Shown here piece by piece: positions 21,228-36,060 of a stretch of 64,000 bases of DNA. Each line of letters starts with the position of its first letter. The first letter of the stretch is position 1. A program made the position numbers and the translations under genes. The notes beneath the pieces were generated by a model. It was not told the DNA's origin. It made no database searches and was given only the letters and a program-made list of their open reading frames with translations. This DNA comes from a virus (Duplodnaviria > Heunggongvirae > Uroviricota > Caudoviricetes): the IMG/VR virus record IMGVR_UViG_2579778842_000017, positions 5,703 through 69,702 of that record; one strand, written 5' to 3'.

Positions 21228-21393
21228 CTTCTTCCTCGTACATTGAGCTATTCGGATCACTCATAAGTTCTGCGCAACAGTGCTCACACACGTGAACTTC
21301 CAGTACATGCAGCTTCTGACCGCAGTTAGCACACGTTAAAGCTCGCTCGACGCTTTCTTTCTGGTATTGAAGGGATTGGGATGGGCTAAGCAT
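21217..21393 (-). CDS. ninF: NinF
   Basis: 58 aa ORF absent from the track (<60 aa), translated by hand: [58 protein letters not shown]. Confidence 0.7.
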
Positions 21394-21748
21394 TATTGGC
21401 GTCCTGCATCATGAGAAAGACAATCATGGCGGCGCGGAGAACATTTTCATGCTCATGCTCCCAAATAGGGTTGGCAGAAGCACCGTGCAAACCGCTTTCG
21501 TTCCAGTCCCAGAGAATGTTAACTCTGTTATCATCAATAATCGGCCATGCGTCTGCTGGGTTTGCGCATGGGTTAAAGGATCCGCGCTCAACTTCTACTT
21601 CAACTGCGTCTCCGTTTACAATGTCTCCCTCAAATGAGATAAACACCATCGCGCCATTCTCACCTTCTTTGTAATCCGGTGATCCGTTATGAATGGCTTC
21701 GAATACCGCCACGTTAATTTCAAAATCACTTAACTGTGAATAATCCAT
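21386..21748 (-). CDS. nin-region protein, DUF2591/NinX-like (copy A)
   Basis: 120 aa from MDYSQLSDFEIN...; paralog of the plus-strand gene at 35707..36060. Confidence 0.55.
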   Translation of the reverse strand: MDYSQLSDFEINVAVFEAIHNGSPDYKEGENGAMVFISFEGDIVNGDAVEVEVERGSFNPCANPADAWPIIDDNRVNILWDWNESGLHGASANPIWEHEHENVLRAAMIVFLMMQDANNA

Positions 21749-21750
21749 TG

Positions 21751-21927
21751 TCATTTCCTCGCACGATTTCTTAGCCACCGGATATCCCACAGGTGAGCCG
21801 TGTAGTTGAAGGTTTTTACGTCAGATTCTTTTGGGATTGGCTTGCGTTTATTTCTGGAGCGTTTCGTTGGAAGGTATTTGCAGTTTTCGCAGATGATGTC
21901 GGTGAAACTTCGTCGCTGTCGCCTCAT
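21751..21927 (-). CDS. ninE: NinE
   Basis: 58 aa from internal Met of track ORF 21751..22062: [58 protein letters not shown]. Confidence 0.75.
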
Positions 21928-22451
21928 GCCGCCCTCCTGACGCCCTGCCCGATCGCCATCAATGCCGCTTTGGATACGGTAGTAAACATCCGTCGAGGAC
22001 TGATGAACGGTCGCCAAATCAGCAGCATGGAGCCTTTGCTGTTTCCCTTCTTCTCCAGCCATGTCGATGGTTCGATAAAATTAATCCGTCCATCAGTGAT
22101 AATGCGAACTTCGTCGACACTCTCCAGAGCCTTGCTGAACCATCCGACTGACATATCCTCTGGCACAAGCATAACTACCGTCTGTCGCTGTTGTATGCAC
22201 TGCTCAGCGGCTTTTTCCACCCACGGCCTGATATTGCTGTACGGTGGGTTATTCCAGATTGCACCGTGGCTTACCCACTCAGAATTGAGCGCGTCGTCGG
22301 CCTCAGTTAGCCAGTGAGCACACAGAGCATTTTTGTCGCTCGCTGCCGAATCCAGCCAGAATCCAAACTCAATATCCAGTGCATCAAAAAGCCAAAGCGG
22401 CGTTTGCCAGCAGTCCTTGTCGTGTGCTGGCGTATTTGATTTGATAGTCAT
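21924..22451 (-). CDS. DNA N6-adenine methyltransferase (phage Dam-like)
   Basis: Start refined to [18 protein letters not shown]...; catalytic NPPY motif (IWNNPPYSN). Confidence 0.75.
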
Positions 22452-22888
22452 GCAGCCCGATCTCCCCATCGCGCTTTCCACTCCAGAGCCAGTCGCGCTT
22501 CGTCTGACCACTTAACGCCACGCTCTGTACCGAATGCCTGTATAAGCTCTAATAACTCCGCAAATTCGCTTACACGCATCCTGCTGGTTGACTGGCCTAT
22601 TACCACAAAGCCATTCCCGGCAAGGTTAGGAACAACGTCCTGCTGCTTTAATGCTGCGGTAAACACACACTTCCAGCTTTCTGCATCCAGCCGGCGACCA
22701 TGCCATTCAACCTGACGCGAAACGTCACCAAGGCAAGCCCAAAGCTTCCGATTTTGGTCTAAGCTGCGGTTGTGCTCCTGAATGGTTACTACTATTGGTT
22801 TGGTTGGGTCTGGAAGGATTTGCTGTACTGCGTGAATAGCGTTTTGCTGATGTGCTGGAGATCGAATTTCAAAGGTTAGTTTTTTCAT
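22448..22888 (-). CDS. ninB: NinB recombination protein
   Basis: 146 aa, recalled as near-identical to lambda NinB. Confidence 0.9.
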   Translation of the reverse strand: MKKLTFEIRSPAHQQNAIHAVQQILPDPTKPIVVTIQEHNRSLDQNRKLWACLGDVSRQVEWHGRRLDAESWKCVFTAALKQQDVVPNLAGNGFVVIGQSTSRMRVSEFAELLELIQAFGTERGVKWSDEARLALEWKARWGDRAA

Positions 22889-33598: not shown

Positions 33599-33835
33599 GT
33601 AATTCAGCACGACTACAGCTTGGTTTTTCACCGCTATCAAAAACTATCATGCTGGCAAAAATGCGCGATGTTGAAGGTGGACGTATGCGCGTTGGCAATG
33701 ATCCAGGTCGTGATGTTACCAATGAGGCTGCTCAATTGGTGTGGCGACTGGTCATGGCTGAAGGTGGTGAGATCGCGTGGGAGCTGGATGATGGTTCTCG
33801 CATGGTGTTGAAGGCAGAAAAGCAGGAGGCAACCA

Positions 33836-34651
33836 GTGAGCCAGATTGATTATCAGGCACTGCGTGCTAAGGCAGAAAAAGCAACGTGTGGCGAGTGGTC
33901 GCTCGAATATGGAGAGGGCCGATTTGATGGTGATGATGCGCTAATTCATCGCGAGGCTGCTGGATATATTCCCATTTGCAGAATTGAAGGAGCGCATCCA
34001 GAAAGCGGTTTCGATGAAGATTTCCAAATGGAACAGCAGGCCAATGCTGAATTCATCGCCGCAGCCAATCCGGCTACCGTCTTGGCGCTGCTGGATGAGC
34101 TGGAAAGAAAACAGCAATACATCAAACGCCGTGACCAGGAGAACGAGGATATTGCTCTTACGGTTGGGAAGCTGAGAGTTGAGCTTGAGGAAGTAAAACA
34201 ACACGCTGAAGAATTATCCGAAACCAAGGCTGTTCGTAACCAATGGCGACCAGATATTTGCCCAATAACCGGACGTGCATTTTTCATGTGGATTGAGCAT
34301 CCAACATTGGGGAATGTGCCGACATATGGTGGCCCATTAGATAGTTACACCATTCCAACAAAGGACGGTGACGGTGAGTTTTCATGTGAGCGTTACGATC
34401 ATGATTTTGGCGGTTGGGTAGAAAGCGAATGTCTTGGGTTATATCTGATTGATGATAGAGAACAATGCAGGGTCTACGAACTGGAGGAACACGTTAAGGA
34501 ACTGGATGCTCGGGAAATATCGCTCCCGGAACGTAGCAGCATGCTTCATCGAACAGATTTTCACGATGATTACCAAACGGTAATGGCATACAAAGTTTCT
34601 GAAGTCATCGCTGCAATCCGCGCCGCAGGCATTCGCATCAAAGGAGAGTGA
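33836..34651 (+). CDS. Ea22-like (ead) protein
   Basis: 271 aa; family typical of the end of lambdoid PL operons. Confidence 0.65.
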   Translation: MSQIDYQALRAKAEKATCGEWSLEYGEGRFDGDDALIHREAAGYIPICRIEGAHPESGFDEDFQMEQQANAEFIAAANPATVLALLDELERKQQYIKRRDQENEDIALTVGKLRVELEEVKQHAEELSETKAVRNQWRPDICPITGRAFFMWIEHPTLGNVPTYGGPLDSYTIPTKDGDGEFSCERYDHDFGGWVESECLGLYLIDDREQCRVYELEEHVKELDAREISLPERSSMLHRTDFHDDYQTVMAYKVSEVIAAIRAAGIRIKGE

Positions 34652-34655
34652 TGAT

Positions 34656-35171
34656 ATGGCGTTAACACACCGCGAACTCTGTCAGATTGCGTACAAGTTC
34701 CTTAAGCGCAACGGGTTCAAGGTTTGCTTTCATGACCGCTTTGTTGCTGTAACCAGTACCGGAGAACAGCCAGATGCTATGGGATTCAGAAATTCAGCAT
34801 CATGCCTGATAGAGGCGAAGTGTTCTCGTGCTGACTTGTTGGCAGATAGAAAAAAGCGTTTCCGTAAAAATCCCTCACTTGGCATGGGCGACTGGCGATT
34901 CTTTATTAGTGAGCCGGGAATTATTTCAGTTGAGGATTTACCTCCCGGCTGGGGATTACTTCACGTTATTAACGGAAGAGTACGGAAAGTACATGGGTGG
35001 CCCAATGGTAATTGCTGTTGGGGTAATCCTGACGATAAGCCATTTACTGGAAATAAGCAGGTTGAATGCGATTACATGTTATCTGCATTAAGGCGCATGG
35101 AGTTGAGAGGGCACCTTAATGAAATATATGACGGTGTAATTGTTAATAAGAAAGAAGGAAACGCGGCATGA
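34656..35171 (+). CDS. hypothetical protein with PD-(D/E)xK-like motif
   Basis: 171 aa; D...EAK arrangement (DAMGF...LIEAKCS). Confidence 0.4.
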   Translation: MALTHRELCQIAYKFLKRNGFKVCFHDRFVAVTSTGEQPDAMGFRNSASCLIEAKCSRADLLADRKKRFRKNPSLGMGDWRFFISEPGIISVEDLPPGWGLLHVINGRVRKVHGWPNGNCCWGNPDDKPFTGNKQVECDYMLSALRRMELRGHLNEIYDGVIVNKKEGNAA

Positions 35172-35710
35172 CCACTATTACCAATAAGAAACAGTATCCC
35201 AGCGAGCAATATCTTAATGAGCTGATCACCAACATAGAGTTTGCTGCAAGGGCACCAGTTGAAGTCGTGAGAGCGATGGCAGCAGAGCTACAGAAGCGGC
35301 GCGAAGCTGATAGTGCAGAACCTGCAAGTAATCATGAAGAGTTGCCGCTTGATTATCTCCAAGGTCAAAAAGATGGTCTTGAATGGGCTGCGCAGCTTGC
35401 AGAAGCAAATCACCCACAAACTGGCGACTGGCTTTACGATGACCCGCTGGAGCTGGCTAAAGCTATCAGAAAAGGTCCTGACATGCCCGAGTTCGCTGGA
35501 CCCCATCCGGTAACTCCGGATGGTTGGATAAGCTGTAGTGAGCGAATGCCCCCTCAAGATGATTGGATTTTAATTTATTCAAAGCACGGCGAGTATATGG
35601 CAGGACAGGTACAAGGGGAATACGTGGAGTTGAGCGACGGCACTTTATCGTGGTTAGGGAACGCCTTGTACTGGATGCCGCTGCCAGAACCGCCGCAGGA
35701 GGCGAAATGA
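35168..35710 (+). CDS. DUF551-type phage protein
   Basis: 180 aa; C-terminal W/P-rich module ending WMPLPEPP. Confidence 0.55.
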   Translation: MTTITNKKQYPSEQYLNELITNIEFAARAPVEVVRAMAAELQKRREADSAEPASNHEELPLDYLQGQKDGLEWAAQLAEANHPQTGDWLYDDPLELAKAIRKGPDMPEFAGPHPVTPDGWISCSERMPPQDDWILIYSKHGEYMAGQVQGEYVELSDGTLSWLGNALYWMPLPEPPQEAK

Positions 35711-36060
35711 TGGACTATTCACAGTTAAGTGATTTTGAAATTAACAGAATGGTAGGAGACATAATTTTTAAAGGCCTTTGGGCATGTAAACCGGAAACAT
35801 CAGGGAATAACACCAACAAATGGTATTACGGAAATGCTGATACAACTTTTGAGCCATTAAACCCTTTACCTGACTACTGCAATAATCCATCGGATGCATG
35901 GCCTATTATTGTTGATAATAAAATCAGTCTAACCTGCCACCAATCTCGCGGTGAGTGGTCAGCTGTTTTTAATGCCGAGAACATTTGCTTTCATGCGAAT
36001 AATCCACTCCGAGCCGCCATGATTGTATTTCTCATGATGCAGGAAAATCAGAATGGCTAA
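35707..36060 (+). CDS. DUF2591/NinX-like protein (copy B)
   Basis: Start refined to MMDYSQLSDFEIN...; first 12 aa and last LRAAMIVFLMMQ identical to copy A, middle divergent. Confidence 0.55.
   Translation: MMDYSQLSDFEINRMVGDIIFKGLWACKPETSGNNTNKWYYGNADTTFEPLNPLPDYCNNPSDAWPIIVDNKISLTCHQSRGEWSAVFNAENICFHANNPLRAAMIVFLMMQENQNG

Follow-up and report, generated by a model that had tools for sequence, protein, structure and literature searches.

Why does one stretch of Caudoviricetes DNA carry the gene ninX twice, on opposite strands, with identical ends and divergent middles? The stretch (hereafter the window) consists of 64,000 nucleotides (nt), positions 5,703 to 69,702 of IMG/VR virus record IMGVR_UViG_2579778842_000017. 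A sequence-only reading of it had described two DUF2591-like paralogs, one in each arm, and had proposed that the short identical blocks at their ends are recombination substrates and may mark how two modules were joined. The analysis presented here suggests, with a probability of roughly 85%, that the two genes are alleles from two different prophages: one belongs to the nin region of a P22-like prophage, which is at argW in a near-identical strain, and the other to a phiV10/epsilon15-like prophage at guaA-yfgI, where it fills a variable slot ahead of the genes for the late regulator and the terminase. In this reading the two prophage parts are joined in ead, and the identical ends are found throughout the NinX family.

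The two ninX genes

Both open reading frames (ORFs) lie where the earlier reading had placed them, and both proteins are members of PF10765, Phage_P22_NinX (formerly DUF2591), with scores of 51.9 bits for the minus copy and 62.6 bits for the plus copy against a gathering score of 22.6. Each covers profile positions 1-114 of 114, and both also match phrog_444 (E-values of 4e-39 and 7e-46). The genes and their immediate neighbors are as follows.

21386..21748, minus strand: ninX, P22-like copy, 120 amino acids (aa), between ninE and ninF; first cassette VAVFEAIH..., second cassette DDNRVNILWDW..., tail DANNA
21751..21930, minus strand: ninE, upstream of the minus ninX; PF05322 in the C-terminal 58 aa of ORF 21751..22062
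21217..21393, minus strand: ninF (PF05810), downstream of the minus ninX
35710..36060, plus strand: ninX, phiV10-like copy, 116 aa; first cassette RMVGDIIF..., second cassette VDNKISLTCH..., tail ENQNG
35168..35710, plus strand: DUF551 gene (PF04448), directly upstream of the plus ninX
36053..36391, plus strand: epsilon15-p49-like regulator (phrog_536), with terS as the next gene and a start that overlaps the stop codon of ninX

The plus copy has an alternative start at 35707 (117 aa), and the start codon at 35710 was chosen by family comparison. The two proteins are 38% identical (BLASTP, E=4e-18). As had been reported, the first 12 residues (MDYSQLSDFEIN) and a stretch near the C-terminal end (LRAAMIVFLMMQ) are identical in both, while the middles diverge. 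Three motifs are present in both copies, xDYSxLSDFEIN (N-terminal), DYCNNPxDAWPII (central), and NPLRAAMIVFL (C-terminal), and two alignments, of 100 and of 86 sequences, show their columns to be nearly invariant.

The minus copy occupies the same slot as P22 NinX (PF10765, PHROG 444), which it also resembles in matching the full-length family model; the order is ninB-dam-ninE-ninX-ninF-ninG (22888..20613) in the rightward early operon. The plus copy differs from P22 NinX in lying between the DUF551 gene and the epsilon15-p49-like regulator, before terS, rather than between ninE and ninF. Because position is not part of the Pfam definition, its membership in the family stands. The slot upstream of the regulator is variable, holding NinX here and an ASCH-domain gene in phiV10, and the regulator is the conserved last early gene. 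This regulator has 112 aa with C-terminal Cys clusters, and the protein is identical to phiV10 p55 (L265 5767..6105). Within the nin region, ninX is known as one of the more divergent genes, with 70.9% DNA identity between phage L and P22 (PMC8022706).

At the nucleotide level the two genes share three blocks. The segment edges given below come from BLAST comparison of the window with about 140 viral contigs.

21713..21748, minus strand: start block, minus copy, encoding MDYSQLSDFEIN; inverted repeat I2; 70 BLAST segment edges at 21713
21536..21553, minus strand: central block, minus copy (DAWPII), second helix
21402..21439, minus strand: end block, minus copy, encoding LRAAMIVFLMMQ; inverted repeat I1; 57 BLAST segment edges at 21439/21440
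35710..35745, plus strand: start block, plus copy; 45 BLAST segments begin at 35704
35893..35910, plus strand: central block, plus copy, an inter-cassette breakpoint; 48 BLAST segments end at 35904/35911
36007..36044, plus strand: end block, plus copy; homology of 13 viral contigs begins exactly at 36008

Of the 36 nt of the start block, 35 are the same in both copies, 30 of them in one exact run; in the end block 36 of the 38 nt agree, and the exact runs there measure 14 and 17 nt. The central GCATGGCC 8-mer is common to both genes, and the remaining gene DNA is essentially unalignable. Short identical blocks in inverted orientation had been noted from the letters alone, and the nucleotide alignment bears this out: no inverted repeats in the window rank above the start and end blocks, and neither block was matched in 100 dinucleotide-preserving shuffles. 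An Rfam search found no RNA family at the blocks. At the 3' side of the end block, the hexamer GCAGGA lies 10-12 nt ahead of the start codon of the next gene (12 nt in the case of the ninF ATG) and probably serves as the ribosome-binding site of that gene.

The module junction in ead

If the blocks had joined the two modules, the parental sequences should change over at ninX. The change is found elsewhere, in the gene ead, at the boundary of the following parts.

1..34312: part from a P22-like (Lederbergvirus-type) prophage; the minus strand carries the virion, lysis, Q, nin, replication, and cro genes, and the plus strand carries cI and the leftward (pL) early operon, with N, ral, cIII, kil, Rad52-type annealing protein, SSB, exonuclease, anti-RecBCD protein, and ead
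33836..34651, plus strand: hybrid ead/Ea22-like gene (PF13935), 271 aa, spanning the module junction
34313..34490, plus strand: crossover interval within ead/Ea22, 178 nt identical in both parental types
34491..62726, plus strand: phiV10/epsilon15-like (Uetakevirus-type) prophage part; a 171-aa gene, DUF551, NinX, regulator, terS, terL, virion, and lysis genes
62930..64000, minus strand: chromosomal genes yfgI and yfgH, located where the phiV10-like prophage has its right attachment site; 100% identical in UMNK88 and ETEC4085

In a normal P22-like prophage, L257, 6 of the 21,490 nt of 13163-34652 differ (99.972% identity), and the match ends at the ead stop codon; a second such prophage, L263, matches the P22-like side at 100%. 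On the other side, the phiV10-like prophage of Escherichia coli UMNK88 has 99.6% identity over 34076-59500 and not a single mismatch from 34313 to at least 36499. From the local BLAST over mixed loci, only breakpoints and the UMNK88 match were used. The P22-like ead of the L257 type and the phiV10-like ead of UMNK88 share 577 nt with 97% identity; UMNK88's own P22-like ead allele is without this homology. The 577-nt overlap contains 17 diagnostic sites, of which all 12 at 34081-34312 have the P22-like (L257) state and all five at 34491-34627 the phiV10-like (UMNK88) state. Such a clean switch of single-nucleotide polymorphisms (SNPs), 12/12 and then 5/5, points to a single homologous exchange within 34313..34490. 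A crossover near 34076, in an ead motif of about 100 nt that is conserved relative to KCJ3K291, had been considered and was replaced by this interval when the closer parent L257 was used.

The junction in ead lies approximately 1.2-1.4 kb upstream of the plus ninX. The minus ninX and its flanks are 100% identical to the normal P22-like prophage (L257/L263), and the plus ninX together with 1.2 kb upstream is 100% identical to the phiV10-like prophage of UMNK88. As both genes and their flanks are fully native, no exchange or conversion has taken place at ninX, and the suggestion that the blocks mark the joining of the modules is not upheld. Instead, the two modules would have been joined by one homologous crossover, or by a path switch of the assembler, in the 178-nt identical stretch of ead, and the inverted orientation of the ninX copies and their 14-kb spacing would be a consequence of this join, not its cause.

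Recombination between inverted ninX blocks

The alternative that recombination between the inverted ninX blocks joined the modules, or flipped the 14-kb immunity/replication segment between them, has some features in its favor. The blocks do exist in inverted orientation and are unsurpassed as inverted repeats in the window; the segment encodes a Rad52-type annealing protein, SSB, and an anti-RecBCD protein; and an exact run of 30 nt comes close to the minimum that homologous recombination requires. Recombination of the RecA type usually needs roughly 25-30 nt of identity; exact identity at the ninX blocks amounts to 30, 17, and 14 nt, compared with 178 nt at the ead junction. The parental SNP switch nevertheless sits in ead, and both ninX copies are colinear with, and 100% identical to, native prophages on both sides. 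An exchange at the blocks would also leave two hybrids, ninE followed by a plus-type ninX and the regulator, and DUF551 followed by a minus-type ninX and ninF. Synthetic junction queries for both, with a threshold of at least 80% query coverage, found neither among 5,426 complete E. coli genomes, where all matches broke exactly at the start block, and the 114 viral contigs contained neither. The sequence-only reading had recommended a look for inversion variants in related genomes, and none turned up in these genomes and contigs. This alternative is therefore considered very improbable.

Short inverted repeats that flank a DNA segment are also characteristic of the Hin/Gin/Cin systems and of shufflons. 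The present locus resembles these in that respect, but differs in that the repeats are the coding ends of paralogs, the flipped form is absent from the 5,426 genomes, and precomputed Pfam annotations contain no invertase or integrase domain in the called genes at 23.8-36 kb or in the nin region. The recombination genes in the 14-kb segment and the nin region are general ones only (NinB, NinG, and the Rad52-type protein). A site-specific invertible switch would have a dedicated recombinase and both orientations among related genomes, and neither was found.

Chromosomal inversion or assembly chimera

The join in ead can have arisen in the chromosome or in the computer, and the complete genome of UMNK88 is informative because it holds both prophage types. 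Its P22-like prophage, at 2.814-2.857 Mb, matches the window in the window's own orientation, and its phiV10-like prophage, at 3.004-3.042 Mb, is on the opposite strand about 150 kb beyond. The two ead genes are approximately 178 kb apart and inverted, and the prophages lie within about 230 kb. The argW locus of UMNK88 has the order fadL-mlaA-yfdC-argW-intS-tailspike...cro/cI...ead...torI-dsdC. L251, a contig of a strain that is 100% identical over 1-11047, has the left flank ant-tailspike-intS-yfdC-mlaA-fadL (the argW side), and it ends at the window equivalent of about 34413, inside the 178-nt repeat. Two other origins had been considered, one in which a circular P22-like genome inserted itself into the phiV10-like prophage and one in which a deletion took place between tandem prophages; both were dropped on the separate and opposite positions of the UMNK88 prophages and on the argW-side genes that flank the P22-like late end.

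Consistent with a real chromosomal inversion of about 178 kb via the ead genes, which are inverted repeats in the ancestral arrangement, the parental SNPs switch cleanly in ead and the window is oriented, with respect to the complete UMNK88 genome, exactly as an inversion product would be. The prerequisites are present, since inverted homologous sequence occurs in two prophages at separate attachment sites. Inversions bounded by prophages have been documented in E. coli O157:H7 (PMC8743559), where two inverted prophages with shared homology are likewise involved. Those inversions, however, involve homology longer than 5 kb and lie on either side of the terminus (PMC8743559), while the homology here is 577 nt at 97% identity with an exact core of 178 nt, the span is about 230 kb and does not flank the terminus, and the putative junction may be an artefact of assembly. 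Records of the exact hybrid ead protein come from one draft contig alone, JNBX01000102.1. An inversion is thus a plausible explanation, though one held with somewhat less than even confidence.

The other possibility is that the source has a UMNK88-like arrangement and that the assembler switched paths inside the 178-nt ead repeat. The window comes from that same draft contig, JNBX01000102.1, the arrangement was seen in no complete genome, and the independent sister assembly breaks at about 34413 in the repeat, which implies a branch of the assembly graph at that point. In opposition to a chimera, 178 nt is short enough to be bridged by 250-nt or paired reads, the assembler built a contig of 277 kb through the region, and the sequence itself bears no mark of error. 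A chimera has about an even chance of being correct, and a path switch of the assembler is at least as likely as a real inversion.

The mosaic structure of the NinX family

While the junction in ead accounts for the presence of two copies, the identical ends and divergent middles are the normal architecture of the family. NinX genes consist of the start block, a variable cassette 1, the central block (...DAWPII), a variable cassette 2, the end block, and a short variable tail. A first viral sample, obtained by scanning contigs with the 30-nt start block, gave 118 genes, of which 114 were typed; further scans with a degenerate end-block pattern and with protein-level patterns recovered largely the same loci and some new ones. 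Seven types of cassette 1 and ten types of cassette 2 occur in 19 combinations among the 114 typed phage genes. All four pairings exist for several pairs of cassette types (for example, N2/N3 with C5/C7), and the same is true for the second cassette with the tail. One identical 36-nt end-block sequence adjoins six mutually unalignable types of cassette 2 and three types of tail. Pile-ups of BLAST segment edges coincide with the inner block edges in the minus copy and recur in the plus copy, at the positions and with the counts listed above.

Neighboring genes take part in this mosaic as well. The tail type tracks the downstream gene, with DANNA, RIQ, and EANNA occurring with ninF and ENQNG with the phiV10-type regulator. 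Cassettes are common to both the ninE and the DUF551 contexts; for example, ordinary nin regions most often have RMVGD..., the cassette 1 of the plus copy, which was counted 41 times behind ninE and nine times behind DUF551-type genes. Of ninX, thirteen contigs retain no more than the end block and tail, joined to other sequence and located ahead of the epsilon15-p49-like regulator gene. These orphan remnants (ending in ...KDTGSIRAAMIVFLLMQEKQNG and a stop) are at L005 1124..1192 (minus strand) and in L132, L134, L135, L139, L141, L143, L144, L146, L147, L149, L150, and L153. The L005 remnant, which was examined closely, lies in a lambda-like leftward (pL) early arm.

The variable parts are not simply degraded sequence. 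The ratio of nonsynonymous to synonymous polymorphism (pN/pS) within a cassette type is approximately 0.1-0.2 in five of six types, which indicates functional coding sequence, and 0.73 in the sixth. Phages of E. coli and Salmonella show almost no variation in the start and end blocks, synonymous sites included. Synonymous diversity of the end block between genes with unrelated cassettes is 0.17, which is not above that within one cassette type. NinX thus has a conserved stretch amid unrelated sequence, breakpoints at its edges, and alternative combinations on either side, the features by which boundary sequences are recognized. Nucleotide-level identity and edge-precise breakpoints go beyond protein conservation and argue for homologous exchange at the blocks. 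From these population patterns we infer that the blocks may act as joints for homologous recombination, by which cassettes and flanking genes would be reassorted among P22-like, lambda-like, and phiV10-like phages. The description of the blocks as recombination substrates thus holds on an evolutionary scale, where breakpoints lie at block edges and cassettes are reassorted, and fails for this window, where both ninX genes are native.

The lambdoid boundary-sequence model, also called the modular-evolution or linker model, describes short nucleotide-conserved stretches between unrelated, recombining segments, as seen in NinX. Mosaicism at short conserved sequences in lambdoid phages is a model in the literature (PMC3233612), and such boundary sequences are annotated as "bsq" features in the CUS-3 GenBank record. 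Lambdoid linkers are intergenic, however, whereas the NinX blocks are coding (gene-end and mid-gene helices), so that protein selection and recombination are confounded; NinX also differs in having two cassettes inside one gene of 120 codons. With these differences, the identical ends and divergent middles of NinX are another instance of lambdoid mosaicism and are not specific to this window.

If the identical ends instead reflect nothing but purifying selection on three core helices, the mosaic would have arisen by illegitimate recombination followed by selection for intact genes. The motifs are indeed kept at the protein level across Enterobacteriaceae, with variants such as MKDYASMSDFEIN, they fall on three helices of a confident structural model, and illegitimate recombination is an accepted alternative model (PMC3233612). 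Selection alone does not readily explain why six unalignable cassette types are flanked by one identical 36-nt end block, synonymous sites included, why breakpoints and block edges coincide to the base in dozens of independent contigs, or why end-block remnants are joined to other upstream sequence exactly at 36008. This explanation is unlikely.

Several points weigh against the account given here. Because the exact start block served as the seed for the first viral sample, conservation of that block is partly built into the sample. This bias is mitigated by the samples seeded in other ways: the exact 30-nt start block is present in 103 of 128 ORFs seeded on the end block, with the rest being mostly contig-end truncations or remnants, and in 77 of 79 genes from protein-level seeds. 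The sample is mostly from phages of E. coli and Salmonella. Amino-acid conservation of the blocks reaches across Enterobacteriaceae (2,289 clusters), which means that selection at the protein level alone explains part of the identity. The 5' AT-richness and the 3' ribosome-binding site of the end block could add constraint at the nucleotide level, and recombination at the blocks is read from patterns rather than from direct observation. With regard to the join, the left chromosomal flank of the P22-like part is taken from the L251 assembly and not from the source contig, and the ead junction itself could be an assembly artefact.

Structure and function of NinX

AlphaFold2 models of the two alleles have mean confidence values (pLDDT) of 85 and 83, with helices at the three conserved blocks in both. 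Cassette 1 is modeled as a loop or beta-hairpin; cassette 2 forms a small sheet in the model of the plus copy, and the model of the minus copy is poor in this part. Amino-acid conservation of the NinX ends is therefore explained by the predicted fold, whose core helices the blocks encode. Two structures in the PDB, 1R7L (a Bacillus cereus phage protein) and 4PUP (a Burkholderia cenocepacia protein), are the closest known matches, with 13-16% identity to NinX and no detectable sequence homology; as both are themselves uncharacterized, the match assigns NinX no function. Searches of NCBIfam, PADLOC, and PDB sequences with NinX gave no useful match. The sole profile match in these searches, the designed protein 6M6Z, was judged spurious. 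Literature searches for a function of NinX/DUF2591 turned up annotation mentions alone.

A more speculative proposal is that NinX is a hypervariable phage protein made of a scaffold and two cassettes, in which the nucleotide-conserved helix blocks would be recombination handles that allow co-resident temperate phages (P22-like, lambda-like, and phiV10-like) to shuffle surface cassettes under arms-race selection on some target, for example a host defence or a host factor. This is regarded as doubtful. If it were true, two differently assembled alleles per lysogen would provide functional breadth as well as a local reservoir of cassettes.

Other features of the two prophage parts

Assignment of the P22-like part to the Lederbergvirus type is based on the Pfam domains P22_portal, P22_CoatProtein, Phage_P22_gp16, and others, together with a lambdoid early region; segments of this module are 97-98% identical to IME10, HK544, Sf6, and CUS-3. 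The Uetakevirus-type part has 97.3% identity to phiV10 over 92% of 36400-58000 and the gene order of the UMNK88 prophage. The normal phiV10-like order is guaA / int ... cI / cro-O-P-ead-DUF551-NinX-regulator-terS ... lysis / yfgI. In the complete genome L159 (CP125889.1, 3750..8423), the distal genes of the leftward operon (ead and DUF551) directly adjoin the tailspike gene with no integrase between them, which is the gene order of the circular phage inside a chromosome.

Several genes outside the ninX loci were also recorded.

23163..25556, minus strand: replicative DnaB-type helicase, 797 aa compared with the usual approximately 460; DnaB_C is split by a faint LAGLIDADG_3 match
16559..17038, minus strand: Tad2-like/DUF2829 gene (PF11195), between the lysis cassette and terS of the P22-like module; mapped from L257 18519..18998
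147..683, plus strand, and 1164..1613, minus strand: Clp-protease-like gene and SocA/Panacea-domain gene in the immI region, between the ejection-protein genes and the antirepressor/tailspike genes of the P22-like prophage
57930..58013 and 58038..58114, minus strand: C4 antisense RNA and isrK (Rfam), beside a BRO-N antirepressor gene in the phiV10-like module
39242..39318, minus strand: tRNA-Arg(TCT), in the gap from the large terminase gene to the portal gene of the phiV10-like module; annotated also in the UMNK88 prophage and in O157 typing phages 9 and 10
4104..4213: about 110 nt that align twice to the otherwise 100%-identical L251, either duplicated in tandem over a short length or differing in length; inside the gp20-type ejection-protein gene, close to the gp16/gp20 gene boundary (4053) on its 5' side

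On the basis of its length and split domain, the helicase probably contains an intein. The Tad2-like gene is a possible anti-Thoeris gene. The C4/isrK/BRO-N region looks like an antirepressor control region of the P1/P7 type.

Significance

The importance of these observations is modest, and they reveal no new mechanism; divergence of ninX (PMC8022706) and mosaicism at short conserved sequences (PMC3233612) are already known. What appear to be two arms of one phage in a draft contig can be separate prophages that meet at a 178-nt repeat, whether by inversion or by the assembler, and this is a practical caution for prophage architecture read from draft assemblies. NinX provides a quantifiable case for the debate on the origin of phage mosaicism, in which conserved boundary sequences are set against illegitimate recombination. 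With thousands of alleles, it is also a candidate for functional study.

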